A stretch of DNA of 55,883 nt from Gnetum montanum (Eukaryota > Plantae > Gnetophyta). Positions 29,101-52,800 of this stretch are shown in pieces (position 1 is the stretch's first letter; each line of letters opens with the position of its first letter). The position numbers were made by a program, and so were the translations under genes. The stretch is from the NCBI GenBank assembly GCA_015680685.1, contig MNCI01000996.1:1-55883 (forward strand), written 5' to 3'. The notes below the pieces were generated by a model. The model did not search any database, had not been told where the DNA came from, and saw nothing but the letters and a program-made list of their open reading frames with translations.

Positions 29101-32100
29101 TCCTAAGCTATCTTTGTGGAGAGTTCTTTAGTAGCTCCTTGGTTATGTTTCTTCCTTGTCTTCATTTTCATTGATGATTCACACCTTTAACTGTTTTCAC
29201 AAACTAGGTTTAGTACAAAGGTAAGCCATTGCACCTTTCTTTGTCAAGGGTGACATTGTCTGGTTATGGCTCAACAAACATGTTTTGCTGCATAATAAAA
29301 TTGGATTTTTAGAATGTTAATGCATTTTGCTAGTTTTATGAAAAATATTGATATCAATGAGTGATATTTTGGTTTACTTTGATGGTGTTTCATTGTATAC
29401 CATGATTCCTTTAGGTAAAATGATGGATATAATACATATGATGAATTTCTTCAATTTTTGTATTCCTTTTATCTAAACATTTATAAATTTTAAAGTAAAG
29501 TAGATGTTAAGCTTGACACTATTTATGCTCTTTTTCTAATCCATGAGAAATCAATTGCAATTGATGATGAACCTAGTATGATTCAAAATAATTTATGAAA
29601 GAGAAAATGCACACTATGTATTGTATGATGATAATGTGTTCTGTTGAGGTTATTAGTGATAAAAAACCCACGGCTTTAATCCCTTGGAATCACAACTATC
29701 ACCAAATTAAAAAAATGTTATATTTCTTTTTCTATGAATTTTTTTTTAACTTTCAGATTTTTCCAATTTTGAAGTAACAAAAGGATAATTTCTTTTGAAT
29801 GTTGATGTAGGACTTTTTGGAAGACTTATGGGGGCGTATAAGGTCGTTGCGTGAGGATGAATGGAAAGTTAATACTGGTTAGTTCTCTTCCTAATACCAT
29901 AGCCAACGTGACACATTATTTTTCATGTCATTTAGTGGCAAATTATAGATCCATGATTGAGCATTGAAAAAGAGGTGGTCATTATTCTATATCGTAAAGG
30001 TACCATTTTTCAGTTGTAATGCTAATATTTGTATTACCTAATATCGAACACTAGTTCAATATATTGTTTGTCCTGTAAATAAATGGTATCTATTAATAGT
30101 CAATGTAATGTCCCTTTTAAAGGCTTGCTATTTTGATATTACATAGCTGCATGTAGGTTTTGAAATTTTTTTAACTGGTACATGCTTGATAATAGATACA
30201 TTGGAAGTTTATTATATATTTTTTTTACCAATATTTCTGTTTAAATTGAGTTCTGCTTGGTTTGACTGACCTGTCATTCTGGCATTGGGCACAAGTCTTG
30301 TGGAATGATTCATCACAGCATCGGGCTCAATATGTTAAACCTATATTAGGCTTGATATTAGAAAGAATTAAATTGGTGACAGATGAAATAGTATCCTTAT
30401 TTAAGTGCTCCCATGTACGCCATCTTATTAGATTTTATGGACATAATATCCACTAGTACAAGCTTAATTGATGGTGATTGTTTGGATTATCTAATGCTGA
30501 AACAACTTGACATATTTTAGAACTTAAGGTTACTTTTCATGGTTGTAAATCAAGCAAGTTTACCGAACAAATTAATAGAAGTTGCTGATACGTTCTTGAC
30601 AACTTATCTTTTGAGAAGTATCTTGTGGGTTCAGGTTTCTGATTTGCATCCTACAAGTTGCAATCTTAATTCCATACTGATATATATCAGCATGTTGAAA
30701 GATAATGACTAAAATTGAACTTGTCTAATAGATCCTTAAGGTCTCCACGTGGATGTAATAGAAATAGTCCAACTTCAGTTCATTGTTGGTCTCATTTATG
30801 ATGTGCATCTGAGCTTTATTGGGTATTAGTTGCAAGGATTGTAAGACATATAAGATGAAATTGAAGTATGTTTTAGAAAGTGCATGGTGACACAATTGTT
30901 GATTTTGGTGTTTTTAAGATTTATGCATCAAGTAATCAAGGGTTTACATTTTATGTGCAGTTCCACGACCATACTTTGATTTTGAAGCTCGATTGGTAAC
31001 AGGAAAGAGCCATGATGTTAAATCAATAACTTGTCCTATGCAACCTCCCTTGCCTTTGACGGTTTCTGATGTGTCTTTGGGTAGACAAATGCATGAGGCA
31101 GCACTAAAATATCCTCAGAGACTTCAACGATTGCACATGTTCTCTAATTCTGAAAATGATGAGGTAATTCATGAAAATTTGGTTATGCTTGACATATCTT
31201 CCCAAGTTTTTTGGTTCTGTTTGAAAATTTGTTTGAGCTTTAAACTGTTTGAAAAAGGAATGTAATCTTCAAATGGATCAATTTTGTGTGTACTTACATA
31301 CGTGGCTGTGTATATTTCAAGACTGCATTAGCTATGGCTTGTCAATTGAATTTGTGATTATGCAGTTCTATGTTGACATAGATTAGGGTATTTGCAAGTC
31401 TGAACAGTCTGTTAATCCTGATGCTCATGTGATTATCATTGCAAAAAGTATGTCAGTGTCCCAGCTGGATTATTGTTTTTGTGTTTGTTCTGTTTTTAAA
31501 CTGTATAGGCGTTAATGTTTTCATTTTTGCTCAAGTCAATTTCAATACTATGACCGTTCATTAAAACCAGGACATTTTTCCCTGATACTTTTGCATGACC
31601 TAATTGGAAAAGTAGATCATGAAGCCAATTGATCGTTTTGTAGTGGAGGAGTATATTATGGATGTTCTGCTCTATCTCAATGGCTGGTAGGCATTACACA
31701 TCTATCTCTTTCATCATATGTAGGTAGGATTTATGGCCATCCAATATTGTTTAAAGTGCTCAACATTTGTTAATCAATGTTTAAGTAAGATTTGTGAAAG
31801 GATAAAGTATATGATGTCTGTATATGTCATAATAACTGAGAACATTATTATCATTATCTTAGAGAAATTATGTAGCTGACCTTATGCCGTATATTGTTGG
31901 GACAGGGCTGTGATGATGGCTATTATTATTATTATTGAAACTGAAATTGCAATTGAAATTGAAATTTTATTGTGTTTGTATAGGCCCAAAGTATTTGTTA
32001 GACAAATTAACTTGTGAAAAATATATCAATCGCAATAAATGCTGAGTACAACGGATGTTTCAGTTTCATTATTAGTATTATTAACATTTTCTAGAAAATT

Positions 32101-35100
32101 TAGATTACTATCAATAATGCTAAAAGAGGAAAAGCATCCCTGGTAAATATATTAAAGTGATTCACAACATGGATGAAGGAGATAATGCTAGAATTAGAAC
32201 ATGTGGAATAACATTTGATTTTTCAGTCATAGTAGGTCTAAATCAAAGGTTTGCACTTAAACTAAGCAAGTACATGATGAAATCTTTTGGTGTATGCTAT
32301 TTGTACATGGTTGGTGGATACAGATTGAGCAAATATTGCTTTTAAAATGGAGAAGTAAGGGCAGGCTCTAGAATCAGAAGATTTAAAAATTAGTAGTAAA
32401 AGTAAGGCAAAATACATGGAATCTAATTTCAATGGAGGTGAAATCAATGATACAATAGAAGTAACCATTCAAGTTAAGGGGTTATTGTTTGGAGTGAATT
32501 TAAGGTGCTTGTTTCTCAAGTTGTAAGACTTGGGTTCAAGCCTAGGTGCAGCCACTTAGTTTAGGATTTTGTTCATTTACTGACCTTCCTGAAACCAGCC
32601 TTGGTGGAATTCTGGGTGATGATCCTTTTTAATTCAAGTCTGCATTGAGGTAGGGTGATCAAAATGGAGATAGGCTAATGGTGTTTTATGCAATAAAAAG
32701 GTCTGAATAAGACTAAAAGGAAAATTTTACAGAATAGTAATCAGGTTTGCTCTTTATATGATATCGAAAGTTGGGTTATGAAAAAGTTGCATGAACAACA
32801 AATTAATGTTGAAAAATTCTGAATGCTTAGCTGGATGCTGAATGTTGTAAGAAGAGATAAATTTTGTACTACAACTATTAAGGAAGACTTGGAATGACTT
32901 TTATTGTAGATAAGCTTTAGTAGTTGTGTCTAAGTTGGTTTGGTTGGTTTTTAGAGAAGTTCAGATAACGGGAATCAGACTTTTGGGAAACCCTTAGAGA
33001 GGAAGACCAGAAAAAGGCATTGGTAAAATGTTTAAAGGAAAAAATTGTTGATAGATTAAAGATTTAGCCCTTAATTGAGGATGATGATGTGAGAGAACTC
33101 ATATAGCTAACCTCATATTGTCAGGACAAGGCTAGGATGATAATGATCAATAGCGAGGGAAAACATTGGGAGAATATGAAGGTCATTATCAGATTTGTTA
33201 TCTATTGATAAAATATTGAAATTTAAAATCAAACTAGCAACTAGTAAAGAAGAACTACACACAAAAGCAGCATGGAGGGTTGAGTTTGTATGTGAGGTTT
33301 TTATTGGAGAAGAAAAAAGGAAACGTTTTTAAAAATCCAAAGCAACTAAAAGTAATGATGATGCTTTAAAAAACTTCTAAAATGAAGTTATAAAGGCAGC
33401 TATAAAAGTTAATACAAAAACTAAATGTAACTATGATGTGTAGATTGAGATGAATAATGGGAGCACAAAGATAGGATATGATTAGAAAACAATATGTCAG
33501 GGGAAATTGTAGGGTTGTACCTATTAGGGATTGGAGGAAGTTGAGGAAGTGGGAGAACAAGTAAGGCATGTTCAAAGTGACTATGTAAATATGATGTGTA
33601 TATTAAGATGAATAGGTGAGCAACAAGATAGGATATGAATAAAAAACAAAATGTCAGGGGAAGTCGTGAGGTTGTACCTATAAGGGAGTGGAGGAAATTG
33701 AGGAAGTGCAAAAACAAATAAGGCATGTTCAAGGTGACTTTGTAAACTAAAATCTGAGCACAAGAGTTCTCATTTGAACCAATGAAGAAAGGACATGTAC
33801 ACATTTCCATAGAAGAGAAAACTAAACCCCGAAAAAGAAAATAAAAAGAGGAAAAGTTATAGAAAGGCAGCAAAGTTGCATAGGGAGGCGCACCTGTTAA
33901 ATCCAGTATAAGGAGGAATGGAGAATTCTGAGGTGTAAGCCAGAAAAGGGAATAGACGAAAGGAAATGAAGGTAGCAAGGTCTTAAGAAAAGAAAACCAT
34001 ATTCTGAAGTGACGTAGAATAACATGGAACAATTTCTACAAATGATTATGAAATAAAGAAGTGACTCTGCGGTGTATGGTAGAAACTAAGAAACGCCAAA
34101 GCAAGATTTTCTGTCGTGAATGGAGATATCTAAATTAATATCCCTTAGTGAATGGAGGAATTTAAGATTACTATCCATAGTAAGGAATGAGGTCGTGTAA
34201 AATCTATGCAGTGAACAGACAGAAAAATGTATTGATTCCATAATAAATGAATGGGAGATGATGTATAAGATTGTCAATGCATAGGAGATGTGTCTGTTGA
34301 ACACAATTTTACTAGTCAACATTGTTAAAACAAAAGTATCTCTTAAGTGTAACGAGTAACTCTTCAATAATATAAAATCAAACAGTGCTTCATTTATAAA
34401 ATTTTTCCTAATTTCTACCAGGCATGAGATGAAATAACAGAGACATGACATGGTAGCTTGTGATGTGGCCGATGATTTAGCCTTATGTTGACAAAAATTA
34501 ATGAACTGAAACACCAAATAAAAAGAATAATGTTAAATTGATGAGGTTTAAATGATATAATTTACGAAAGAACCATCATCACAACTGCATCAATAGACTC
34601 AACTCAAATGAATGTTATGTATAAGATGTCTTTGTAATGTAATAATAACCACCTGGGAAAATGTTATGACTTTGTAAGATAAACTCTTAAGCCATTTATA
34701 TGCTGGCCGCAGTTATGTAAATGTCAGGATTTTAGCCATCCATGCCTCTCATTCTATGTAATTGATCTTCATATTGTACATATTAGCAGTTGGTGACAGA
34801 TATTTGTAATTTGTTAAGATGTCTTTAGTCTGAAAATTTAACATTATTTTAGCTAAGTCTTATGGCAGAGATTTCCTATGCATAGCACAGTACTTTAATT
34901 GAAGAAGAAATTACAAATACATTTCTATATGCTAATTATGTGTTTTGTACTTGAAATTCATTAGTCGGAAAGAATGCACTGCATACTTGGTTGGGTTACC
35001 AGTTCCTTTCAATTATGACAAAATACTGGCAGAAACTATATTCTCGCAGGTAATGGAGACCATTCAAAGATATTTGTGTTGTGTAGTTACAGAAGATATA

Positions 35101-38100
35101 TATATTTTTCTTCTTTTGGTGGAAAAGGTTCTTTTATATTTCTTTTCATCTCTAAGAGTGTTTTTGAGGATGGTCCTATTTTATTAGAGAATTCTTTTTG
35201 AAATACTATACATGGTGCCATCTCAAATCTCTACTTTCTTAGCAGATACTAGTGGCTCCAAATGTACATAGTGTTTTTTAAGAGAGACGTGTCTAATCAT
35301 TTATAATTATTATGTCCATTTGAGTTTAAAAGAGTTTATTGAGAGAGTATAAGAAAATCAACTTTTTTTTTTTTTTGGAAAAATTTGAGTGAAGTTTATT
35401 CCCAAAAAGAATGACTATACAAAGGTATAGCGCAAGCTAGGGCAGTTGACCCCACATTGACAACGGACCCAAACCCCTAGGCCCCCCGCAAGTCCCAACC
35501 GCATCAGGGCATTCCCGTTAGCGGGTTAAAGGTCCCAACCCTGGACCTTGAAACAGTATTTCGGATTGAGCCAGGCATGTCCCAGCGCCCCACCCCACGT
35601 TAGGGGCTTTTGGGGCGGTCATGGTTAGAGCTCCAACTCTCCTCGAGGGTTTGGAGGTTCGAGAACTGCGCGCCCGGGCAAGCATCCAAGCGACGACGAT
35701 TCTCTTCAATTAGCCGGGCAATACCTATCATGTGGTCGTTGATGAGGCTCTCAATCCATTGCAGCATTTGGCTGTGAGAGTGCGGGGGTAGGGTCTGTTT
35801 CCCAGAGAGCGCTTTCCTAGCAGCCCGAACCAGCCCCTTGTCATTGCTCGCCTGCCCAGTTGTGATCGCTCTGGGGTCGGTATCCACAGTCGACGAATCC
35901 CGTAGCGGGGCCTGGGCTGGCCTGCCCCGCACGCAACCCCCACCCGCAAGGTCCCGGGAGGACATGGTCGTAGGCTTAGCCGAGATCGCGTCACCCCCCG
36001 CCGGATGGCCTTTGCTCCCCCTCCACCTTTGATACACCAGCGTAGGCCTGAGCGGCGGAGCTAGAGTGCCAAACCGCCAAAGAACATAGATCACCATTGG
36101 GTGTTGGCCAGGCCGGCGTCATTGCAGAGACTCCCAGAGGAAGTGGGGGAGGTTAATAGGAGTCTTGGCGCGTATGTGCTTGAGAAACATGAAGTGCACC
36201 CCGTTGAGTCTATGGTGGGAACCCAACTGAATGAAGTAACGCTCCACCATCGCGGTCGTGGCCCTCCAGGCTGGCGAGAGGGCCAACCCCTGAATGTGGC
36301 CGTTGACTGTCCGGGGGATGGAGCCCTGGAAGAACTCGGCGGCGTCCACCTGGGACTGAGCCACAGGGGAATCTAGTCCCCTGTTGCGGGGGCACCAATC
36401 ACCTCAGCCAAAGCGTCAACCATCACCTGGATTTGGCGTCCGCGAAACATCGTGTACTCCCTGTTCTAGTTTGCATAGAACGGCTGGACATCCATCTTTG
36501 GGTTTGCCGCAATGTGTTGGAGCAAGGTAGTCCAACCCATCCGCGAAACCATCTGCTAGAGATTAGTTTGTTTTTGAATGTCGGTAGCTGGCGGTTCGAG
36601 ACAGGCACGCGGTCCCATTAGTGCAGTAGTTTCGTCCCACGATCTTCTGAACCAGTGAACCAGCGCGGCAGGTGAGGGGATAGTTGTCCCTCTGAAGATC
36701 CGATTGTTCCTGGCACGCCAAAGGGTCCATAAGGCTGCAAGTGTTTGCGAATCACCATAACATTAGAGCGGGGGGAGGCCGGACATACTCCAGAAGTTCC
36801 TAGCGACGTGGCACTCATGCACGAAGTGTTGGTGCGTCTCGTCGCGTTGATTGCACATTGGGCAGATGGTGTTAATGTGCATGCCATGTGCCTGCAGACG
36901 CGTTCGTACAGGAAGCACCTCGTTCAGGACCAGCCACCCAAAAGCCTTAATTTTTTCTGGTAGGCAGCCTTTCCATAGGCGCTTCCAACGAGGATCCTCC
37001 GAGAATTGGCGTTTGAGCAGTTCACGGGGGTGCAATGCGGTCTCGTCTTCGTGGGTGAGGGTGTGGATGTGTGCACAGAGTTGGTGCCAGACCAGGTTGT
37101 CAGACACGGTAGCCTCCTAGGGTCGGTATTTCCATACCAGGAGTTGCACCCACCGGGGGGGNGCACGACGCCGGACGACAGTGTGGCCATGGAGGCGGCG
37201 AATCTTGCCATGGCTGCCAACACAGTAGTTGCCAATATGATCTTCCCTTTGCGGGATAGGAACCTGTTCGCCCAGTGAGCTGTGTGCATTTGAAGTTTCA
37301 TTATGAGCACCTGCTAGGTTCGCTGTTTGTGCCAATTGTGCATTGGCATTCCCAAGTACGTGTCCTCCTCGCTCCCTGGGAGAATCCCCAAGATCTGGAT
37401 GATCTTAGTGCGCACACTAGGATGGGTATGGGTTAGGTATATTGCGGACTTGCCTGTGTTGGTGGTCAACCCCACTTCCCTCTTCATCCTGTCCATCGCC
37501 CACAGGAGCGCCCGAGATGTTGGTGACCCAGACGTTCGGTCCCAGAAGGTGCACCGTGATGCTCCAGTCTGATGCATCGAGCAGGGACGAGGCAATCCTG
37601 GTGAGGATAGTGAGACCGCCAGCCCGTCCTCGGCTAGGCACCAGGTGACTGCACCATCCCTCCCAATGTAAAGCTTGATTTTCCGGCTGTCGTAATTTTG
37701 TCTCTTGGAGACACACCACGTCGCACCCCTCGGTACACATAATTCTTTTCAAGGTATTTCTCTTATATAGGGGTACCCTGTCCCCGACAATTCTAGGATA
37801 GAATCTTCATGGAGAAACAGACAAGCATCTGTGATAAACCTCCCAGAGTGTGCATTGCGCTCCCAAGTCGATATCCAATTGCGTGGTCGTTTTCCAGGTG
37901 TGGGCGCTGTTAGGACGTCCAACCTTGGGCGACGTCTGGGTTACATCAACCCCCTTCTCGTGCAGCACCCCTTGCACAACATCGGGCATTTTGGGCCGTG
38001 GCAAGCCCCTGCTAGTGGTGATCCAGTCACTCAGCGGCAGTAGCTCTAACCCCACCTGAGATGTGTCCACCCCCTTGTCTTGGGGCTGTTGGGCGAGCTA

Positions 38101-41100
38101 GGGCAGCCCGCTTGGGTGTTCGGACTAGATGGAGCACCACAAGAAGTTGTGCCCTTTTTGCCTGGTCGGTTGTTCAGGTTCGCAGCCATAGGTCCCCCTC
38201 CCCGAGAGGCCCCGAATGTCCCTCTCCCGGCCCGTCGAGGCCAGGAGGAACCACGCTGTTGTTGCCCTTGGCCGGGGGCAGCCCCAACCCCGACCTGCGA
38301 CACCCATGCGGACTCCGTCAAGCCATGTTTTGCCACCCGTCCCTTCTTTCCAATGAGCTTCCAGCCACCTTCTTTGAGCTTGGGTGTTGGGCTGCCCTGT
38401 TTCGCATGGTTGACCCCGCCAGTGATGCCCTCAGGCGAGGCCGGGGTCGCAGGCGGCAGGTTTTCGAACTGCACTCGGATCCTTTCCTCCCCTAAGTTTG
38501 TGTCCAGCACGATTTCGTCCACGCGGTCCTCGGAGCGCAGGGATTGCCATACACAGAACCTTGCAAAACCCAAACGATCCATCCCCGCAGTGAACGGGTC
38601 AAATTTTATAAACTCGCCAAAGAGATCGGCCAGCGATTTCAGAAAGTCCACTGACCAGTATTCAAGGGGGAGACTGTGTAGTCTCACCCAAACTGGTGCC
38701 CGCTCAAAAAGATCCTTATCTCGGTGTGCCCTCGGGCACCAAGGCGCCAGCGCCAGCCCCCGTGCCCCATAAAACCAGGGCCCTTCCACCAGGATGCGCT
38801 CCTTGTCCGTCCCTGATTCGAAGCAAAATAGGAGACGGTCGTCAGCCAGGCTTTTGACCATCATCGTGTCCAGCCCCCAAATCGACCAGACCCATCGCCA
38901 AATCAAGTCCATCCATGGCTGCGCGCCCTCCGACATGAACTTGCTGAGCAAGCTGCGTTCTAACCGTTGTAGGGTGCCGGCCGCCGGGCGACCAACCTTT
39001 AGGCTCATCACCGAACCCTCGCGCGAGCAGGTCTCAAACTCCCTGGGGCCTTTTAGCGCGGCCAGCGGGGCTGCCTGCCTTTCCTCATGCGCTTCGCTTG
39101 AAGCGATGCCATTGGCGGTCTGCGTACCCGCATCCGCTTGTGCCCGCCCTGTGCCCTCTGATGCATTTGAAAACATTCTCGCCCTGTGCCCTCTGATCCA
39201 ACTTTCCAACAAGTTTCTCCATAAGAAAATCAACTTTCTTCTTGGTGTATGCAATCTCGAGACTTAATAGTACAGGCAGAATACTGCCAAAAAAATGTAT
39301 ACACGACCACTGCAAAAACATGATCATATTGACTAAGATTACGAATAATTATTGAAGTTTCATTTGACTAACATGCAATAGTTATTGGCTAATATCAAAC
39401 CTTATATGTAAATTTTAATAATATTGTTAATGCTTATTATAGCACAGGAATGTTCACATAAAGATAAAAATAATTAACGCCTGACATATTACTTGGGAGA
39501 TGGCCGAGAAATGAAATCTATGCAAACATGATCATTAGTCATTAGTCGTTGATAATCAAGCACAAGAAACTCAATGCGTAAATAAACAATAGATATAGAA
39601 AAGACAATGGTCTTCCTCAGTCATAGGTCAGGTTAATCTTTAAATGGACAGACTTATCTGACTACTTTTTTACCAAAAGGCACAATTTACATATTCGCAG
39701 GTTTACTTGTTAACTTTGGTCATTCCTGGTCATTTCCAACTTGCTGAACCAGAACAAATACCATGCTAAAATATTTAAGCATGTGCATTTTTTTGGACGT
39801 TACTCGTTAGAACATGCTAATTCAAATACTTGGATCTTTGCAGATATTTTTACTCCCTAAGCCAAGGTTTAAATTGCTTTATTATGCTTTAGTAATCATC
39901 GATCTCTTCAAGGTAAACCAGCACATTTATCGTTTTCCAAATAGCTATATTTTAATTCAATATGTTATTGAAATTTTGTGCAACCTTCTAAGCTTGCTGC
40001 GTTTTTCTTATATGATTTTATTGTAGGCATTGCCTGGAGCATTCCCAGCTGTAGTAGCTGATTCTGTTCGGTGGCTATTCAATCGAGTGGGTGATTTAGA
40101 CATGGAGTGTCGAACTCGGCTTGTTCTTTGGTTTTCACTTCATCTGTGAGTTTCTTAGTTAACAACAATTGCTTCCAAGTCTTAAGCTCAGTTGCATCCT
40201 GTATGAACTTGTTCAACTCTGACTTGTTGCCTTCGAAAAATCAGTAAGCTTTTATTATGAGTTCTTAATCGATGTGCAATACTGGTTTCAGATCAAATGT
40301 ACGTTTTATATGGCCATGGACAGAATGGGGGCTTGTCTTGGATCTTCCAAAGTGGTCGCCACGGCGTGTTTTTGCACAAGAAGTACTTGAAAAGGAAGTG
40401 AGGTTGTCATACTGGGAAAAAATAAAGCAGGTTTGACACTAATGAGTTTCTCTGTTCAACATAACAAAATATACATTATTCAAAGTCCTCTTGCTTCTCA
40501 TTTTAATAATCGGTGATATTTCAACAAAGTAGAACTGAATTTCCGTCATGTATAATTGAGACATGATACCTTGTAATTTGTCTCCTCTTTTTATATAGAG
40601 TTTAGAGGAAGCTCCTGGTTTTGTGGAGTTACTTCCTCCCAAAGAAAATGGACCGTGCTTCAAGTATAGCAGAGAGAGTCAAGGAGAACAATCTGAGACA
40701 GAATTGGCTCTTGCTGCGGACCTCACAAATATGGTGAGAGATAGAAGAGTTGTACGTGAAATTTATACGTGGGTTGATGAGAATATTGTATCTGTGCATG
40801 GCACCAAAACAGCCATTGAGCTGGTGGTACAAACTCTTGTTAATATTGGATCAAAGACCTTGACCCATTTGGACAGTGTTCTGGAGAGATATGGACACCT
40901 CATCTCAAAGCTAGGTTCTGATCATTCAAATCAAGTTCTAATCATAGATGAAATTTCCAAGCTGTGGAAAAATAATTCTCAGATGATTGTGATTACTATT
41001 GACCGAATGATGGGGTACCGTATTGTTTCTAATTTCTCAATCTTAAAATGGGTATTTGCTCCTTCGAATATCGAGCAATTTCAGACCTCTGGGCGACCCT

Positions 41101-43502
41101 GGGAGGTAATACTTTCTTTCCATTTATTTGTGACGAATTTAGGTGTTTCTTTTCTGTGAGAGTAGATAAATTCAAAAATGGTCACTTCTGTCATTAACAG
41201 ATATTACGAAATGCCCTTGCAAAGACCTTTAACCGGATTTCAGATCTTAGAAAAAAGGTTGCCTCTGCAGAGGAAGACGTTAAAAAAGCCACCGACGCCC
41301 TTGCAAAGGTACAGGCTGAGGTAAGGTCCGCTGAGGCGTCTGCTGAAGGGGATGGAGGGCAGGAAACGCAGAATCAACAACGAGAGTTTAAATTAAAAAG
41401 ATTGAAGGCCGACCTGGAAAAACGGAAAACACAGGAGAATTCTGCTCAGGAGCAGCTGGAAGCCAATAATGCAGTACTTTTTAAGGAATTGCAGGATACT
41501 GAGGTACGGAGCTATATATCTTGTTGTCTTCCTAGAACTTAGAGCCAGCTATATGCTAGCTGTTTGGACTAATGTGGACACTTTCAGCTGGCCATCAAAA
41601 GATTCCCCAAAGGGTGTCACTGGAAAAGGTTTTTTGCCTGTGTCAACCATGGTCGGAGATGAAATGTTTCAATTTCCTAAGATAACATAACTCGCATTTC
41701 CTTGTATGTGTCGGAACAACTCGCATTTCCTTGTATGTGTCGGAACCACAACTAAGGAACATCGTGTTTCCCTCGTCTATTTTCTGCTCAATATCCCAGT
41801 CGGATTCTTAATCCCTTGTAAAAATCATCTGGTGCTCAGCGAATCACTTGTAAGAATGAAAAGAATGAGTATAAGTTGAAACTATTTTGGTTGTTCCTAG
41901 TGGATTGCTCACTTGTAAGAATGAAAGGAATGAGAATATTGCCAGCAGGATACTGTAGAAAAATAAGAGTATAACAATGCTGAAGTGTGACTTGAACCGA
42001 TAAACTTTTGGCTGTCAAAACAATGAGCTAACCACTTGAGTGATTTATCCCTAGCATTCATTTCCTTGTATTTTTTGGAGTCCGATCATTGCCGTTGCTG
42101 CCCTTGTAACTTATGTTTTAAAACAGTGCATAGTTCCATTAAGATATTTGTCATTACAGTTCAAGGGTTGCAATGCAAGGTCATATGCATGAGGGGACAT
42201 CGTCAGAGCTCATGGAATGGGTTTTCACATTGTTCAAATGCATACCAATGGCTTTTGACCATCAAAGATAAGGGCAGGTCTTTACAGGGATGAATTTGGG
42301 GTGTCCTTCACTAAAATTATGACTACTTACTTTTAGGTTATCATACCGCTGATATGATTCTTTGGAACAACTTAAGCAGAACACATGTTTCAGCATATCC
42401 TTTTAGATAAACCTGTGACTTGCATATTTACAAGTCCCATCCCTTCACAGGTATGAGTTTCTACCAGTGCATTTTTATATTACCATGACTATATTCCATC
42501 AACCTTGTTTACAAATATTGCTTGCCATTAGCTGGGCTCTCTCCAACGTGGTGATACTCGTGGGATATCCCATTTTGATTTTATCTCCTACCACATCAAC
42601 CACAGAAACGGGTCCTTGTAAAATCTTTTAAGGTACATCACCTGGTAATGTTCTTCCATCTTTGGATGACTGGGATCTCAGGTCCAAACACATTCGCAGC
42701 TGTTGCAGAAATGTCTGAGTATGTATGTGATTGCCGACAAGCTATGGCTCGAAGCTTCAAACATGATACTAAAGGGTGCTTTGTGTTGCTGCACATTTGA
42801 AATTCACATCACAGTTATTTTGTGCATCCTTAACTAATGTTTCGGATACCTGGCTCAATTTTAGTAACACAGACCTATCATCAATTTGGAAATGCAGGCC
42901 TTGCTTGTTGCTCTTTACAAAAATTTCTCCGAGCAACTCATGAAGCATAATCTGGACACAATTTTTGACTCTGAAGTTGACGCTGTAGAAGCTGAAAATG
43001 AGGGAGATTCCATGGCAGTTGATGGAGACGAACCGTCACCAATGGATGCCGATGATGACATGGAACGTCGGAACCAAAGGTGTTTTTTTCTGCATATCAG
43101 AGTTAGTAGCATTTATTCATGCCATTTTATTTTCATATTCACAATTTTGGGCAATGTTTCTTTTTTACACCGTGTGCAGATTTTCCAAAACTAAAGGGGC
43201 AGAAAATCAGGAAGAAGTTGAATGGTGTACAAGCACATTGGGTCAACTTCAAGCATTGACCCGCCAATATGCTACCGAGGTAAAATAACAAAGTCTACAT
43301 TATTGTCAGCAGTATCATTTACATGTTAACTATTATGTCGTTTCATCTTTACATAATTCAAAATCATTGTTTGCAGATTTGGAACAATATCGAAAAGCTG
43401 GATGCTGAAGTTTTTACGGAGAGCGTTCATCCTTGTATCAGAAATGCGGTATATTGTAGTCTGCGCCGCAGCATTCCTCCTTCGTCAGACATGATGCGTT
43501 AG
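14072..43502 (+). CDS. ABH1: Nuclear cap-binding protein subunit 1 (CBP80/ABH1/NCBP1), whole gene span, 19 coding exons, 871 aa
   Basis: Hand-spliced exons 14072-14155, 17870-17929, 18020-18076, 18611-18682, 19546-19608, 20430-20606, 22685-22816, 29811-29877, 30961-31163, 31616-31686, 34965-35049, 39844-39912, 40027-40145, 40292-40430, 40599-41105, 41201-41503, 42898-43079, 43180-43279, 43377-43502 sum to 2616 nt with no internal stop. The product is collinear with plant CBP80 (FETLLSSAATTVD..GNPSWQ, PIDRFVVEEY, ALPGAFPAVVA, IDRMMGYR, TRQYA.EIW). Confidence 0.96.
16748..16945 (+). mobile_element. tRNA-derived SINE-like element with an RTE-like 3' tail
   Basis: TGGTTAGAGCA head, B-box-like GTTTGATTC, tail GGGATAAAAGC...GATGATGAT. 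Confidence 0.45.
17870..17929 (+). CDS. ABH1: CBP80 exon 2 (EMCHGSILRELDHSEDNILE)
   Basis: GAG acceptor, GTAAG donor, phase 0/0; aligns to ETCFG.IRRE. Confidence 0.85.
18020..18076 (+). CDS. ABH1: CBP80 exon 3 (LLLQCFEELPHKSPYYATL)
   Basis: TAG acceptor, GTAAG donor; LLQC.E.LPHK.P.Y.TL motif. Confidence 0.92.
18611..18682 (+). CDS. ABH1: CBP80 exon 4 (VGLLNLDNEDFAKKVV...)
   Basis: CAG acceptor, GT donor; GLLNL.NEDF motif. Confidence 0.92.
19546..19608 (+). CDS. ABH1: CBP80 exon 5 (NALENEQCDKIRILIRLLTVL)
   Basis: CAG acceptor, GTAAT donor; C..IRIL.R motif. Confidence 0.9.
20430..20606 (+). CDS. ABH1: CBP80 exon 6
   Basis: VFETLLSSAATTVDDDTGNPSWQARADFYIFCILASLPWGG; TAG acceptor, GTATG donor. 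Confidence 0.95.
20911..22263 (+). mobile_element. Solo-LTR-like sequence in intron 6
   Basis: TGTTA...TAACA termini, purine-rich U3-like body, TATA-like site at ~21950; no matching TSD found. Confidence 0.5.
22685..22816 (+). CDS. ABH1: CBP80 exon 7 (RVQDELERVMAGIEAYLRIR...)
   Basis: TAG acceptor; in-phase GT donor at 22817 (donor position slightly less certain). Confidence 0.86.
23221..24983 (-). mobile_element. Merlin (IS1016/IS1595-ISXO2-like) DNA transposon, decayed, with imperfect ~55-60 bp TIRs
   Basis: Transposase pseudogene inside; left GGTGAA..GTGGGGAGGG..TACCGGAAGCAACTAGTT..ACCAGAAT versus reverse complement of the right end GGTGAA..GTGGTGAAGG..TACCGGTAGCAAGCAGTT..ACCATAAT. Confidence 0.75.
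23750..24690 (-). pseudogene. Merlin/ISXO2-like DDE transposase pseudogene
   Basis: Stitched translation: CPKC zinc ribbon, VSKHITID*YSFGRNIC, KIGGPVKIVEIDE, MFEGIEQ, DKSSKTLVNLIYKWV, LPSSEIHSNM*KAY, VNHSRHLKDP, VHINKEE, SYLHKFTWRR. Confidence 0.88.
26132..27452 (-). mobile_element. Solo-LTR-like sequence in intron 7 (left boundary uncertain)
   Basis: Minus strand starts TGATGCCAAC at 27452; CCTATAAAGG TATA box at ~26563-26572; many AGAYGTCT/AGACATCT motifs, as in the LTR at 6218-6964. Confidence 0.5.
29811..29877 (+). CDS. ABH1: CBP80 exon 8 (DFLEDLWGRIRSLREDEWKVNT)
   Basis: TAG acceptor, GTTAGT donor; DF.EDL..RI motif. Confidence 0.92.
30961..31163 (+). CDS. ABH1: CBP80 exon 9 (VPRPYFDFEARLVTGKSH...YPQRLQRL)
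   Basis: CAG acceptor, GTAAT donor; phase 1 join with exon 8. Confidence 0.93.
31616..31686 (+). CDS. ABH1: CBP80 exon 10 (IMKPIDRFVVEEYIMDVLLYLNGC)
   Basis: PIDRFVVEEY motif; TAG acceptor, GTAGG donor. Confidence 0.92.
32150..33150 (+). mobile_element. RTE-clade LINE relic (RT C-terminal half to 3' tail), possibly with a small SINE-like insert at ~32478-32650
   Basis: Decayed motifs DFSVIVGLNQ, LESEDLKIS..KYM, KFYRIVIR.ALLY..ESW, RGRP; tail GACAAGGCTAGGATGATAATGAT. Confidence 0.65.
33425..33739 (+). repeat. Tandem duplication, two diverged ~157-bp units (RTE-like sequence)
   Basis: 33425-33582 versus 33583-33739; both end GGCATGTTCAARGTGACT. Confidence 0.85.
34965..35049 (+). CDS. ABH1: CBP80 exon 11 (RKECTAYLVGLPVPFNYDKILAETIFSQ)
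   Basis: TAG acceptor, GTAATG donor; phase 2 join with exon 10. Confidence 0.93.
35600..36618 (-). pseudogene. Extra coding region fused in frame after ORF2, resembling plant retroelement accessory protein (Transposase_32-like)
   Basis: MGPRACLEP..MGWTTLL..FYAN*..FRGRQIQV..LAEVIGAP..AWRATTAMVERYF..HFMFLKH..INLPHFLWESL..HPMVIYVLW; four stops and one frameshift. Confidence 0.6.
36619..37810 (-). pseudogene. LINE ORF2 remnant: endonuclease N-terminus, RT tail and zf-RVT; RT core absent
   Basis: MKILS*NCRG, DVVCLQETK, GRAGGL, then directly GLTTNTGKS, TYLGMP, LSRKGKIIL, KIKAFGWLV, CPMC..ETHQHFVHEC, LWTLWRARNNRIF. Confidence 0.9.
38046..39176 (-). CDS. LINE ORF1 protein (DUF4283-type), 376 aa from the first ATG inside the element
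   Basis: LFCFESGTDKERILVEGPWF, APVWVRLHSLPLEYW, FARFCV, VQFENLP; probable frameshifted C-terminal continuation to 37807. Confidence 0.85.
   Translation of the reverse strand: MFSNASEGTGRAQADAGTQTANGIASSEAHEERQAAPLAALKGPREFETCSREGSVMSLKVGRPAAGTLQRLERSLLSKFMSEGAQPWMDLIWRWVWSIWGLDTMMVKSLADDRLLFCFESGTDKERILVEGPWFYGARGLALAPWCPRAHRDKDLFERAPVWVRLHSLPLEYWSVDFLKSLADLFGEFIKFDPFTAGMDRLGFARFCVWQSLRSEDRVDEIVLDTNLGEERIRVQFENLPPATPASPEGITGGVNHAKQGSPTPKLKEGGWKLIGKKGRVAKHGLTESAWVSQVGVGAAPGQGQQQRGSSWPRRAGRGTFGASRGGGPMAANLNNRPGKKGTTSCGAPSSPNTQAGCPSSPNSPKTRGWTHLRWG
39844..39912 (+). CDS. ABH1: CBP80 exon 12 (IFLLPKPRFKLLYYALVIIDLFK)
   Basis: CAG acceptor, GTAAA donor. Confidence 0.93.
40027..40145 (+). CDS. 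ABH1: CBP80 exon 13 (ALPGAFPAVVA...DLDMECRTRLVLWFS)
   Basis: TAG acceptor, GTGAGT donor. Confidence 0.94.
40292..40430 (+). CDS. ABH1: CBP80 exon 14 (FIWPWTEWGLVLDLPKW...EVRLSYWEKIKQ)
   Basis: CAG acceptor, GT donor; WPW.EW and EVRLSYW motifs. Confidence 0.94.
40599..41105 (+). CDS. ABH1: CBP80 exon 15
   Basis: ELLPPK, VVQTLVNIGSKTLTHL, IDRMMGYRIVSN; TAG acceptor, GTAAT donor. Confidence 0.95.
41201..41503 (+). CDS. ABH1: CBP80 exon 16 (ILRNALAKTFNRISDLRK, coiled-coil region)
   Basis: CAG acceptor, GTACG donor; 303 nt open frame. Confidence 0.92.
41689..41746 (+). repeat. Perfect tandem duplication, 2 x 29 bp
   Basis: AACTCGCATTTCCTTGTATGTGTCGGAAC twice. Confidence 0.95.
42898..43079 (+). 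CDS. ABH1: CBP80 exon 17 (ALLVALYKNFSE..., acidic region)
   Basis: CAG acceptor, GT donor; phase 2 join with exon 18. Confidence 0.88.
43180..43279 (+). CDS. ABH1: CBP80 exon 18 (EWCTSTLGQLQALTRQYATE)
   Basis: CAG acceptor, GTAAA donor. Confidence 0.93.
43377..43502 (+). CDS. ABH1: CBP80 exon 19 (IWNNIEKLDAEVFTESVHP..., stop)
   Basis: CAG acceptor; TAG stop at 43500-43502. Confidence 0.93.
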   Translation: MWNNIEKLDAEVFTESVHPCIRNAVYCSLRRSIPPSSDMMR

Positions 43503-47055: not shown

Positions 47056-49829
47056 CTCTAGTTAGTTTCATGCACTATTTAGGATTTAGTGAAAAATCAT
47101 TCAACATTGTTGGATCAAACCTTAAAGTCACAATCATTCTAACACTAATAATAATTGTAACAAAGAACATTGTTAATTTTCTTCTAATCCAAGATATCTT
47201 CTTCTCACAGGGATGATTCTTTGCCTAAATTTGAGCACACATCCAATCAAAGGAATGAACGATCAAATTAGCTAGTGCCCCAACAATGTTGAGTGGTATA
47301 TACTCATCCTAATGAGTATGTGCCCAATTTCACCTTCATCATACATTAAGATGATTAGATGCAGTAGAGAGACATGGAGGACAACATTGTGTTGCTGCCT
47401 GATCAATCAATTTCTATGATGCTCCAACAAACTCTTATAAGGTTGTTCATCTAGGGGATCCATGCTGAGTATGTTGTGTAGGATCATGACTCCAAGGATT
47501 ACCATCCTATTGAAGCATAATGCAAAATCGATTGACAACAGGAGAAATGCTACCAAGCTGCAAAGGGAAAACAGTTCAATAATTCCTTATTCTTGCTAGG
47601 CCAAAAAGATAGTGAGGATTCCTTCTCTAGGGATTCTCATTTCATTGACTCCTCCCCTTGGTTTCAACAAAGTGGATTTAAACCAGAATTTACAGTCCAT
47701 TGTAAACAATCTTGGTTCAAGCAAGAATAGGTCTTGTGATCATGGGGGATCCAAAGATAGGAGTCATGACAGGGACAAGGGCAAGCATCATGATGATGAT
47801 CATGGCTATGACCATTGAAGAGGGGATGACAGGCATCATGATGCTAGTCCTCTTTTCTCTTCTTCCTCTAACTCTAATTGAAGTTGTAGAGGATGTGCCC
47901 ATGATAGGGGTGACCGGCGGGACAAAGATGATCATGATTGTAGAGCCCGTTGGAATGATCAAGATTAGGAACATGGGCATTCAATGAAGGCTCACCACCA
48001 TAAGAGAAGGGGTAGTAGAGGGCATCATAGGAATCATGGCCATCATAGAGGCCATGACTATGATGAGCCTTTGCTTGCTACTTGAAACATGTTGAATATC
48101 GTACAGGTAGTTAGAATTCCAATAAGGCATGTGAAAGATAGCCCAATAAAGTGCTTGGATATGAACAACATTTTCAAGTTTGAAGGGGGATACAATTTAG
48201 ATTTGTGGAATAATCTACAAGCCTTTCACAATGCTTGTGCCTTGCAAAACATAGAAAATGAATGGTAAAAACTTAAGCTATTCCCTAGACCACTCATAAA
48301 GGAAGTAGAAAGTTTGTATTACCCTTTAGAGCTAGAATCAATCCGTAGATGGAGCATGGTGCTTGAGCTATTTAATGACAAATGCTAGACATACTCTTGG
48401 GTGTCCAACTTGAGAAAGCAAATCTAAGATTTAAGACAAGAAATACATGAACCCTTGGACACAGCCATGGGCAGGTACTATTCCCTTTTGTACCAATGTC
48501 TTGGCCATGGTTACTCTCAAAGGGAGCAGCTTTGCCATATCATAGATAGGCTTTGATTAGAAACAAGGAGAACTCTTGGGGTCTATGCCCAAGGGAGACT
48601 GTGAAAATTAAAAGTCCATCAAATCTAAAGGCTCATTTAGTAGGTTGCTAAAGAAGAAGGAGAACTTAGGAAAAGAGAACGTATGGAGGAGTATAATTAG
48701 GATCCTTGCATTTGAAAAAGGGAAGTTTGGTTTGTTGACAATGAGGAGGAGGCACCACTTGATGAAGTGGTGTAGCAAAAAACCTTGCTGATCTAGAAAT
48801 ATCTCTTCAAAATTTAAGCTAAGGTAGATAAAATATGGCAATGTTTGGATGAAAAGTTCCAAATGGCTCTAAAAATAGCAAAGGCATCCAAAGAGCAAAG
48901 TAGTGATCATGATCGCAGGAGAAGGAAGGATGTTGGAAATATCCACTAATGGGGTAAGGGCAAAGTTGATACCGTAGAGGAGGTTGTGGAGTTCAAATTA
49001 GATAATGATGGTGCATGTGACATTTGCCAATATGAACATCCTAAGGGATGTTGCCCTATTGTGTCACACTTTTAGGAATCTGGGGTGTACACTTTAAGTC
49101 ATTGATTGGCAAGAAGGCAAGCACCTAGAAGGTTGCCTTATCCTCAATGCAATCCAAGGTAGTTCCACCAACAACAAGCTTATTATCCATGTGGAGATCC
49201 AACACAAACGTTTGAGTAGTATCATCAATGGCAACACCCATAGCCGTGGGGGATGCCGCCACCAAGGCACGAGTACCCTTATAAATAGTTTGATCCATAT
49301 TAATACTATGTTCAACAATCCATGTCTCCACATGACTTTTCTAGTCATGCTTCTTTTCAGCATCACTATTACCCTCTTGAGTATTATAGAGCTCATTCTC
49401 CATCTCCAAGAGGGGAGCTCCCATATCATTATCATCCTCCTCATCCTTTTGTGCATGTCCCTCCATTTGCAATCCAATTACCACCTACTCCATTAATGTA
49501 GGGAAAAAATTCAGTTGAGCTACCACAACATAACACTACCAGGGCCATTAACTTACAGCTGGCTCTTGAGTTGAGTGGTTCAGAACCCAGACCCAAAAAA
49601 GACCATTCTTTCAAACCAGTAGTCCTACAAAGTCCTCATAGACAGCTAATAACCTTGCTTCTTCCTCATCCTCTACATCCAATCCATTCAATTCCCCTTC
49701 AAATCAAACACCTTCCAAAGTGCATACTATCATGCTAATCCATGCTGTAACTGATTGGATAAAGGTAGGTCACCTTCCTAGAAAAAATATCTAATCTGGG
49801 GAGTTCCTTAATCTATCTCCAAAGTGTTA

Positions 49830-52800
49830 GGAATGAGTTTTGCAAAGCTCTTTTGGATTCAAGTTCTAGTGTTAATATCATTTCTTATGAGATGTACAAA
49901 GCCTGGAACCTACGTCCACTCAAGAAGAGTAACATTCACCTTGAGTTGACAGACCAATCCATCACTATTTCCTTGGGGTTGGTGGAGGACATTGTGACTA
50001 CTATCTATGGATGGTCCTATCTTGCTAACTTCCTAGTATGTGTGGATAGCTGCAAGGGAGACTTCCCATTCATTAGGATGGCTAAGTACCATTGATGCAT
50101 GGTTGGGAATTGGAGATCTTTCCTTGGAGATTTCCAAAGAAAATGCATTTGGAAATATTGAGAAGAAGAGAGTTCCATGCATCGCGTATAGTGATACAAG
50201 GTGCAATGGTGTGTAGAAACTATGAGTCATAAAAAGCATATCAATCATAGCATGTAGACAATGTGTAAAAGAATCTAAAATTCAAAGGTGCCTATACGTA
50301 GCAACCACAAAATAGGAGGACATCCAATGGCTGACAATTGATCCTAAAAGCACCACACTTTGCGTGGAACCCACTAAGAATTTAACATGTGCCTATGTTG
50401 AAGGCATGGATGAACTAGAGTAAGTTCATCACCAACTCTATAATCATGAACTTGATGATACTTATTGGGAAGAGTTGGAGATCTTTAAGAATTTTAAATA
50501 GGAGTCTTCGGAGTTGAAAACTCTCCCTACTGGCATGGAATATGCATTTTTGAAAAATTGTAAGTCAGTGATAATCAATTCCAACCTTGCTCTTGAACAA
50601 AAAGAGATGCTATTGAAGGTGGTTAATAAATGGCCAATATCCTTTGATTGGTCACATCCTAAACTCATTGGGATTGATCCTTGAATATGCCAACATTGCA
50701 TCTATACTAATCCTTTTATAAAGCCAAAGGTAGTTGTAATGGTGGTTGAATCCTAGGTTGAAGTCAAGGAGGAGATTGAACAACTCCTCAAGGTAGGGTT
50801 CATCTATTCCATTGTAGATAGCGAGTGGGTTAGTCCACTCACAATCATGCCAAAGAAAGGTGACAACTAGAGGGTCTATATTAATTTCAGGTTGTTGAAT
50901 ATGACAACCTACAAAGATAATTTAACATTACCATTTATGGACCAGATGTTGGACATTATTTCTAGGAATTACTATTATAGCTTTTTGGATGGTTATAGTG
51001 GCTAAAACCAAATTTAGATCGCACTAGAGGATCAGGCCAAGACTACATTCACAAGTCCTTGGGAAACTTTTGCATATAGAAAGATGCCTTTTAGTTTGTG
51101 CAATGCCCCTGCAACATTCCAACACCTTGTCTTGAGCATTTTTCAATAATATATTGGTAGTGGGGTGGAATTCTTTATGGATGACTTCTCGACCTATGGT
51201 GCTACATTTGAGCAAGCCCTGGACCACCTTGAACAAGTGCAAAAGTGCATGGAGATCAATCTTTAGCTTAATTGGCAAAAGAACCATCTGATGGCCCAGA
51301 AGAGCATTGTGTTAGGGCATGGAATCTCACAAGTAGGGATTGAGGTGAACCCTGAAAAGTTTAGGGTCATCCAAGGAATCATCCATCAGCCAAAAATCAT
51401 TAAAGATGTCTGATCATTCCTTGGTTACATTGGCTACTACTGGCGATTCATAGAGAATTTTTTTAAAGATTTGGAACTTACAAAGAAAGATGTTTTGTTC
51501 ATATGGATGAAAAAAAGCAAAAAGGAATTCCAGCAACTTAAATAAAAAATTGTAGAAAATCCATTTCTACAAGCACCTAATTGGTCTTGACCATTTCACA
51601 TCATGATGGATGCATTGAACTATGCCTTGAAAGCCATGCTTATGTAGTTGGATGGTTAGAAATGTCCATACTACATCCACTACATAAGCCAAAGCATTGT
51701 GGGTGCATAACTCAACTACACCACAATAGAGAAAGAGCTAATGATGGTGGTGTATTCCTTATAGAAGTTAAGGAACTATGTGCTTGGATATAATGTGTTT
51801 GTGCACATGGAACATAATTCCATTTTCTTCCTAATGAATAAACCAACGGTGAGCCCCCATGTCATACGATGGCCTGTAATCTTGCAAAAATTCAATCCCA
51901 CCATGATAGATCGAAAGGGGATCGAGAATGTAATCACCGATCGCTTGTCTTAGTTATGATGGGATAATAAAGAGAAAAAGAGCTTACTTTTTGATTAGTT
52001 TCTTGATGAACTCCTCTTTGCTGGTGTGATAAATGAACAGGTTCCCAATGAACCTACATGGTATAATGACATCATCACTTATCTTCGCACTCAAGAGACA
52101 CCACAAGAGTTAGACTACAGGAAGAAACAATAGTTTCTTCATTAGGCCAAACACTCCATGGAGATCAATAGACACCTTTATAAGGTGTGTGTCCATGGCC
52201 TAGTTCATTGGTGTGTTCTTGATGCTGACTAACTATGCGTTTTCCAAGATGCTCACAAGGTCCCTTGTGGGGGCCACTATGCTAGGAGACACATGGCTAT
52301 TAAGATCTTGATGGTAGGGTGTTATTGGCCAAATCTCTTCAAGGACACCCATCAATTCATCTACTCTTGTGAATGTTGTCAACACGAAGCTGGGATGACT
52401 ACTCAAATGGTGGGACCTTAGCAATGGATTCAACCACTGAAACTCTTCAACATCTATGGCATAGATTTCATGGGTCCCATCACACCCATGTGGAAAAACA
52501 AGGTGTACATAATAATCATTATTAACTATTGTATAAAATGAGAAAAATTAACAACCATCACTGATTGTACATCTTCTACTACTACATGGTTTGTACAACA
52601 AAATGTTGTAAAGAGGTTTGGGGTGCCATGTGCATTGATTTTTGATAATGGTACTCACTTTATAGGCACCACCTTTTGAAAGCTCATGCAACGATTGTAG
52701 GTTGAACATAAACTAACAATACCCTACCACCCTTAAGCCAAAATTCAAGCAAAGGTTACCAATACAGAGATCTCAAAAATCCCAACAAGAACAAATATAG

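Follow-up and report, generated by a model that had tools for sequence, protein, structure and literature searches.

A LINE in an Intron of a CBP80-like Gene

The window, which here denotes the whole 55,883-nucleotide stretch of Gnetum montanum DNA that was analyzed (contig MNCI01000996.1, assembly GCA_015680685.1), contains part of a host gene on the forward strand. Its exon region at 40599..41156 matches PF09090 (MIF4G_like_2, E 6.2e-24), and further exon-like frames lie at about 30400-31200 and 39800-43200. We take this gene to be CBP80-like; compared with the flowering-plant protein, it looks strongly diverged. A 29-bp tandem duplication is found in the gene region at 41689-41746. Upstream of the exon region, a long intron (about 8 kb) harbors a LINE in antisense orientation. 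Elsewhere in the window, a weak match to a gag-aspartyl protease at 49769-50095 (E 0.16) is likely a decayed LTR retrotransposon, and low-complexity, transposon-like frames occupy 3400-5900.

The LINE is a 3.86-kb GC-rich island on the reverse strand (GC 0.57 vs 0.32-0.33 on the flanks), bounded by a 17-bp direct repeat (D1, 35349-35365 = 39221-39237) that represents the 3′ copy (35349..35365) and the 5′ copy (39221..39237) of a target-site duplication. The poly(A) tail (35366..35376) appears on the forward strand within a run of 14 T (35363-35376), the first three bases of which are common to the poly(A) run and the duplication. Next to it is a 3′ UTR of about 224 nt (35377..35599), over which the contig depth of the family goes on to 35394. 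At the other end, the element begins near 39220, and family depth is down to background at 39216. A 21-nt direct repeat with 35-nt spacing is present at this 5′ end (39145-39200); contigs show further short repeats there, an arrangement resembling that of LINEs with tandem 5′ units. In run X5 (organism B), a 2754-base contig passes from the flank through the poly(A) into the element over 35100-35424 with no differing letters, so the insertion appears to be shared with organism B.

ORF1 (38046..39176) has an intact frame and encodes a DUF4283 domain (38906-38550; PF14111, E 3.7e-24). ORF2 is less well preserved. The N-terminal part of its APE-type endonuclease (37516..37810) matches PF03372 with E 0.0012 and 19 bits, against a cut-off of 24.5, the piece being truncated and frameshifted. 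An internal deletion at 37515/37516 has removed the rest of the endonuclease and most of the reverse transcriptase (RT) from the window copy. At this point, 16-19 contigs per run diverge from the window sequence and run on, which indicates that other copies have the missing part. Positions 37018..37515 hold a remnant that translates into the C-terminal part of the RT and the region following it; no Pfam match above the cut-off was obtained for this interval, and its RT identity is presumed from motifs. A further deletion seems to have occurred at 37162, where the sequence has a single N that could mark a join made in assembly. The zf-RVT domain (36790..37017) is clearly recognized (PF13966, E 2.4e-17) and is followed by the C-terminal helices of ORF2 (36619..36789; LWTLWRARNNRIF...W).

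Several side observations concern variation among copies. Many other copies lack the one-base frameshift that the window copy has near the endonuclease start (37768-37769). At 37812, immediately ahead of ORF2, 20-26 contigs per run diverge from the window sequence, and contig depth is about tenfold lower over the end of ORF1 (38040-38186); together these suggest that subfamilies differ in the ORF1 tail and the spacer. By all features testable here (DUF4283, zf-RVT, poly(A), and target-site duplication), the element is a plant L1, and the window copy is a decayed, internally deleted member of an abundant family.

A 340-Codon Module Downstream of the Zinc Finger

An earlier note on this DNA, made from the letters alone, had proposed that the zf-RVT frame continues into an extra domain of about 340 codons, up to a stop at 35600. 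Its description of the window copy holds in detail. The motifs that it named are all in place on the reverse strand, and the module comprises 84 + 256 = 340 codons from ATG 36618 to the terminal TAA (35602-35600). Between LWTLWRARNN and this ATG no stop intervenes, and the ORF2 C-terminal helices read in frame into the module. The reported stops are those seen in frame, namely, TAG at 36558-36556, 36468-36466, and 36375-36373 and TGA at 36121-36119, and the frameshift, which had been put at ~36364, maps to a four-base run at 36366-36369. To these we add a fifth in-frame stop, TAA 36765-36763, which falls between the zf-RVT core and the module, a short distance upstream of LWTLW.

The module can be divided into two parts. 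Its core of about 190 codons (36041..36618), which is Transposase_32-like by a transitive homology described below, contains the three TAG, the TGA, and the frameshift in the window copy. The tail (35600..36040) is open in the window copy and consists of a linker rich in G, A, R, S, and P, a predicted helix (about 35767-35680, amphipathic or coiled-coil-like as judged by eye), and the stop; it yielded no Pfam match, and no homologue of it was found. At this composition, 339 open codons are expected by chance with a probability of about 1e-5, a figure that refers to the frame of the family and not to the broken window copy, and 172 open tail codons alone with a probability of 0.003.

Presence and Reading Frame of the Module across the Family

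Among 24 public sequencing runs listed, at least 16 contain part of the stretch, and seven were compared with the window. In run X1, summed contig depth is 790-2260 over 35394-36716 (the module and 3′ UTR), 835-1555 over the zf-RVT domain, and 1010-2483 over the ORF1 core, compared with 0-3.7 on the flanks. The pattern in X5 and X7 is the same. Such summed depth is no copy number; it indicates that the family is high-copy and that the module occurs in it as often as the other parts of the element. Depth was higher over the conserved core motifs, an observation given no weight since contig depth cannot rank the parts of a gene. In X11, X13, and X8, all 30 bins of 36060-36800 are covered. The module is present in six organisms (A, B, C, D, G, and H), which share 31-mers and are therefore close relatives.

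The junction with ORF2 at 36620 is likewise found elsewhere. At least six contig pieces among the 32 listed bridge it with 31 letters or more on each side, four of the six without gaps. Each differs from the window at 19-36 letters, which identifies the pieces as coming from other copies. The earlier note had envisaged that other family copies might lack the segment; those seen here contain it. No contig spanning the entire module and no intact copy was seen among the runs compared.

Whether the family frame is open was assessed from the share of depth carrying a sense codon at each of the five stops. These shares are 0.78, 0.86, 0.77, 0.71, and 0.64 in X1 and 0.85, 0.75, 0.67, 0.71, and 0.52 in X13. 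The values in X11 are 0.72, 0.58, 0.48, 0.65, and 0.40, with two of the five under half. Four of the five stops are C-to-T changes in a CG or CHG context, and such changes recur in many dead copies, which explains the lower shares. Over 36060-36800, the X1 majority differs from the window at 48 positions, none of which can make a stop (37 checked individually and the other 11 by class of change), and no indel reaches 55% or more of depth. In the tail (36060-35600), seven of the variable sites were checked and none makes a stop.

At the frameshift site, one extra base is present in seven X1, two X5, and four X7 contigs and appears as a gap row in 11% of X1 depth. Many contigs are clipped at this run (23 + 10 in X1, 8 + 6 in X11, and 7 in X13), and the consensus of their loose ends, read by eye, includes the extra base. 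Again by eye, frame and core motifs are preserved in divergent copies represented among loose ends. The window copy's own changes are spread evenly over the codon positions (12, 13, and 12), as expected for a dead copy, and are silent on selection. Taken as a reading of contig sequences, a single frame most likely encodes both ORF2 and the module in this family, and we regard it as highly probable that the module is both family-wide and open.

No indexed run with part of the stretch is recorded as RNA. Among the raw reads of run X20, 435 fall on the element, on both strands; 325 of these are under 90% alike and 16 are at 99% or more. These reads fit many LINE copies inside host transcripts and do not establish that the module is expressed.

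Homologues of the Module and the Link to Transposase_32

Pfam was searched with pieces of the window, and neither PF20167 (Transposase_32) nor any other match was obtained for the module pieces with E limits of 1 or 10. Homologues were then sought by phmmer among 1.84 billion proteins; the query was the natural ORF at 36122-36403, which leaves out the N-terminal half of the module, and five matches were returned. Two are real (P0005, E 2.1e-4; P0006, E 2.6e-4); the other three (P0004, P0007, and P0008) are repetitive proteins and were dropped. P0006 shares 32% identity with the C-terminal half of the module over 117 columns, and its first 12 residues match the motif just before the frameshift, so that both sides of the frameshift are matched. 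A further search from P0006 retrieved five more proteins, including P0009 (244 aa). The earlier note had considered that the repaired peptide might have no homologues; this is contradicted by the stand-alone proteins P0005, P0006, and P0009.

P0009 and four of the five other members of its cluster match PF20167 from position 2 to 153-170 of 177, with 14.3-20.1 bits and E values of 6e-4 to 0.04. Because these five matching members are 86-92% identical, their matches amount to a single line of evidence. PF20167 is not matched by seven further true homologues (P0005, P0006, P0010-13, and P0016), most of which are C-terminal-half fragments. P0005, P0006, and P0009-P0018 form a family with an invariant CEG...YH...N.P motif. 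This family scores under the Pfam cut-off for Transposase_32, of which it may represent a branch not yet modelled.

The two halves of the module differ in how firmly they are tied to these proteins. Against a profile from which the two direct matches had been left out (A2), the C-terminal half scores 17.4 bits, the best shuffle reaching 2.1. Local profile tests of the N-terminal half gave 0.1-0.9 bits, which is not significant (shuffles up to 3.5), and hhalign placed it out of register with a probability of 15.5. When the halves are joined with X, the score is 48.5 vs 40.0 bits, the N-terminal half adding 8.5 bits. In a global alignment with ends chosen by hand, this half runs Met to Met with one gap against the first 83 residues of the P0009 cluster, scoring 17-29 (shuffle mean -37; 0 of 2000 shuffles reach the score). 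This places ATG 36618 opposite the first Met of the stand-alone homologues and keeps MG and EP in register, and the module accordingly has the appearance of a whole gene, complete with its own start codon, set in frame behind ORF2.

The likeness to Transposase_32 that the earlier note had suggested from a series of motifs is therefore borne out in part. It is supported through the P0009 cluster at 14-20 bits; the window pieces themselves have no Pfam match, and every score lies under the PF20167 gathering cut-off of 45 bits, which makes the link transitive. On these sequence comparisons, we consider the module probably Transposase_32-like by a two-step link below the cut-off, and we do not file it as a member of the family.

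Other searches were negative. Word-based searches with the C-terminal piece found no homologue (820 and 41 candidates), and no full-length protein joining ORF2 and the module was found in these searches or by phmmer among the 1.84 billion proteins. Metagenome scans revealed no homologue, a 20-residue match (L001) across the out-of-frame start of the query being dropped as chance, and scans of viral contigs with P0006 and profile A1 gave no match. Sequence searches of the PDB gave none under E 0.79. AlphaFold models were of low confidence (mean pLDDT 46 and 44), and when one of them was compared with PDB and BFVD by Foldseek, no match fell under E 0.001, which is uninformative either way. No scan of window pieces or homologues matched PF03078, PF10536, or PF04195, PF10536 being absent from the window pieces and the 15 proteins scanned. 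The N-terminal half may have some motif likeness to the plant mobile domain. A transmembrane helix, as expected of the Env-like ORFs of plant retrotransposons, is not indicated by hydropathy in the module pieces or in P0009; the highest 19-residue values are 1.1 and 0.78 for the module pieces P0003 and P0002 and 1.32 for P0009.

Alternative Explanations

The earlier note had proposed either an ORF2 fusion or an ORF3 starting at ATG 36618. We favor the fusion, since no stop precedes this ATG in the X1 majority reading, and judge it probable from the reading frame that the module is made joined to ORF2p. That the ATG still matches the start Met of the homologues speaks for the other reading, according to which the module is a separate ORF3p made by internal initiation, from a subgenomic RNA, or by cleavage, and would act in trans, the mode supposed for the stand-alone accessory proteins of LTR elements. 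A promoter of their own can drive the extra ORFs of LTR elements (PMC7264820), and a TAATG overlap surrounds the module ATG (36618-36621) in the pattern of stop-start coupling. However, the TAA of this overlap is outside the ORF2 frame both in the window copy and in the majority reading, with no common indel listed there, and it may be chance or a relic. Run X20, at low depth, shows no pile-up of RNA ends. A separate ORF3p is consequently the less likely product, though it is the rival we take most seriously.

Slightly less probable still is that the module is a passenger, that is, a transposon ORF taken up by the founder of the family, amplified along with it, and open since capture. In keeping with such a view, great heterogeneity is reported among the extra ORFs of LTR elements, along with doubts about whether they have a function (PMC6317226). 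Against it stand the in-frame fusion, the 340 codons kept, the presence in six organisms, and the retention of frame and core motifs in the divergent loose ends. The composition of the module also matches the rest of the LINE, with a GC content of 0.59 vs 0.57 for the element and a CpG ratio of 0.74 vs 0.74 and 0.69.

That the segment is confined to the window copy, as a nested fragment or a one-off 3′ transduction, which the rearrangement of this copy (the deletion at 37515/37516 and the N at 37162) might bring to mind, is rejected as very improbable, since module depth equals that of the rest of the element at some hundred times the flank and other copies bridge the junction. Equally improbable is a degenerate RNase H, the domain that plant L1 ORF2 usually carries as an addition at its C-terminus. 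It would suit the position of the module (PMC5203782 and PMC4686597), but the Pfam scans gave no RVT_3 or RNase H match for window pieces or homologues, and the match of the homologues, which are stand-alone proteins, is to PF20167.

The earlier note's idea of a LINE lineage with a third module thus stands, as the segment is family-wide by contig depth and is not RNase H. Our preferred explanation, to which we assign a probability of roughly 60%, is an L1 family whose ORF2 frame runs past the zinc finger into a 340-codon, likely captured Transposase_32/Athila-ORF1-like gene, likely made as the C-terminus of ORF2p.

Relation to Known Retroelements

The element resembles other plant L1 LINEs in its ORF1 with DUF4283, probable endonuclease, zf-RVT, poly(A), and 17-bp target duplication. 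It differs in what comes after zf-RVT, where a 340-codon module without relation to RNase H takes up the slot. LINE ORF2 is known to have captured foreign domains at its C-terminus, namely, RNase H in plants and a viral helicase in insects (PMC4686597; see also PMC6338049), and surveys of L1 domains and plant elements, in the parts available, mention only RNase H at this position (PMC5203782, PMC9033089). The insect R1/TRAS LINEs carrying a viral SF1 helicase offer the nearest parallel, as a foreign ORF2 C-terminal module is kept by the family; the donor there was an RNA virus enzyme, whereas here it would likely be a noncatalytic plant transposon accessory protein. An anti-silencing role has been proposed for the R1/TRAS helicase (PMC4686597).

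Transposase_32 usually occurs as a stand-alone extra ORF in LTR retrotransposons; here its relative would lie in a LINE and share a frame with ORF2. The module shares with the extra ORFs of Ty3/gypsy LTR retrotransposons (Transposase_32, PF20167; Athila ORF-1, PF03078) a core of ~190 residues with homologues matching nearly the whole PF20167 profile, a low-complexity linker and predicted helix after the core, and a 3′ position in the element. It differs in its non-LTR carrier, its in-frame fusion to the RT polyprotein, and its scores below the family cut-off. Extra ORFs have been described for LTR elements, thousands of plant LTR retrotransposons carrying ones of unknown function (PMC6317226 and PMC7264820). 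The plant mobile domain (PF10536) and Transposase_28 (PF04195) were compared by analogy, with no profile match to the module. The closest sequence relatives are the P0009 cluster, P0006, P0011, and P0013 (from Logan, JGI, and ENA), the module being collinear with P0009 from the first Met. Their annotation is that of independent proteins, 85-252 residues long and lacking RT and zf-RVT. ORFs resembling these proteins also occur in LTR elements of conifers.

In the literature searched, which lay outside Repbase, Dfam, and most subscription papers, no plant LINE with such a module was found. Judged from sequence data, the module is a real and family-wide feature of this plant L1, and its own family link is probable.

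Proposed Function and Significance

The donor of the module would be an accessory ORF of an LTR retrotransposon, set between zf-RVT and the poly(A) by 3′ read-through or a template switch, with the ORF2 stop lost or bypassed on capture. The LINE would then make an ORF2p with a C-terminal extension composed of the core domain, a flexible linker, and the predicted helix. L1 ORF2p acts mainly on its own RNA, and the module would therefore enter the nucleus as part of the particle and be on hand where insertion takes place. There, a noncatalytic, nuclear module acting in cis on the ORF2p-RNA particle could bind chromatin or DNA and steer insertion or shield new copies from silencing, and the tail helix may oligomerize.

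Several comparisons, all of them analogies for the role of the module, point in this direction. PF20167 is described as related to Athila ORF-1 and has been reported in an Athila element, in a 3′ extra ORF for which a nuclear signal is predicted (PMC11728184). For the Athila domain itself, predictions include coiled-coil-mediated pentamers and many host contacts (PMC13547354), and DNA binding is predicted for TRP28, another extra-ORF domain (PMC11963269). Among host proteins, those with a plant mobile domain bind motifs in chromatin and counteract silencing by Polycomb (bioRxiv 2024.09.27.615353). By such analogy, a chromatin or anti-silencing role is a tentative proposal. The same caution attaches to the fuller scenario, in which an L1 lineage might have taken a whole LTR accessory gene and welded it to its RT, to act in cis at insertion as a chromatin-targeting or anti-silencing arm.

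A LINE with the module fused to ORF2 implies that the module can serve an element without a capsid, integrase, or LTR. Its carrier lacking all three, the job of the module is narrowed to a problem common to all retroelements, for which chromatin or host silencing is, by analogy, the most likely candidate. The module would be the third kind of captured C-terminal module on LINE ORF2, after RNase H and the viral helicase, and the fusion gives a way to test the role of an unexplained family of accessory proteins. If the proposed explanation is true, a working module has moved between the two great classes of retrotransposons, and the Transposase_32/Athila-ORF1-like domain would be a portable nuclear module rather than an envelope protein.
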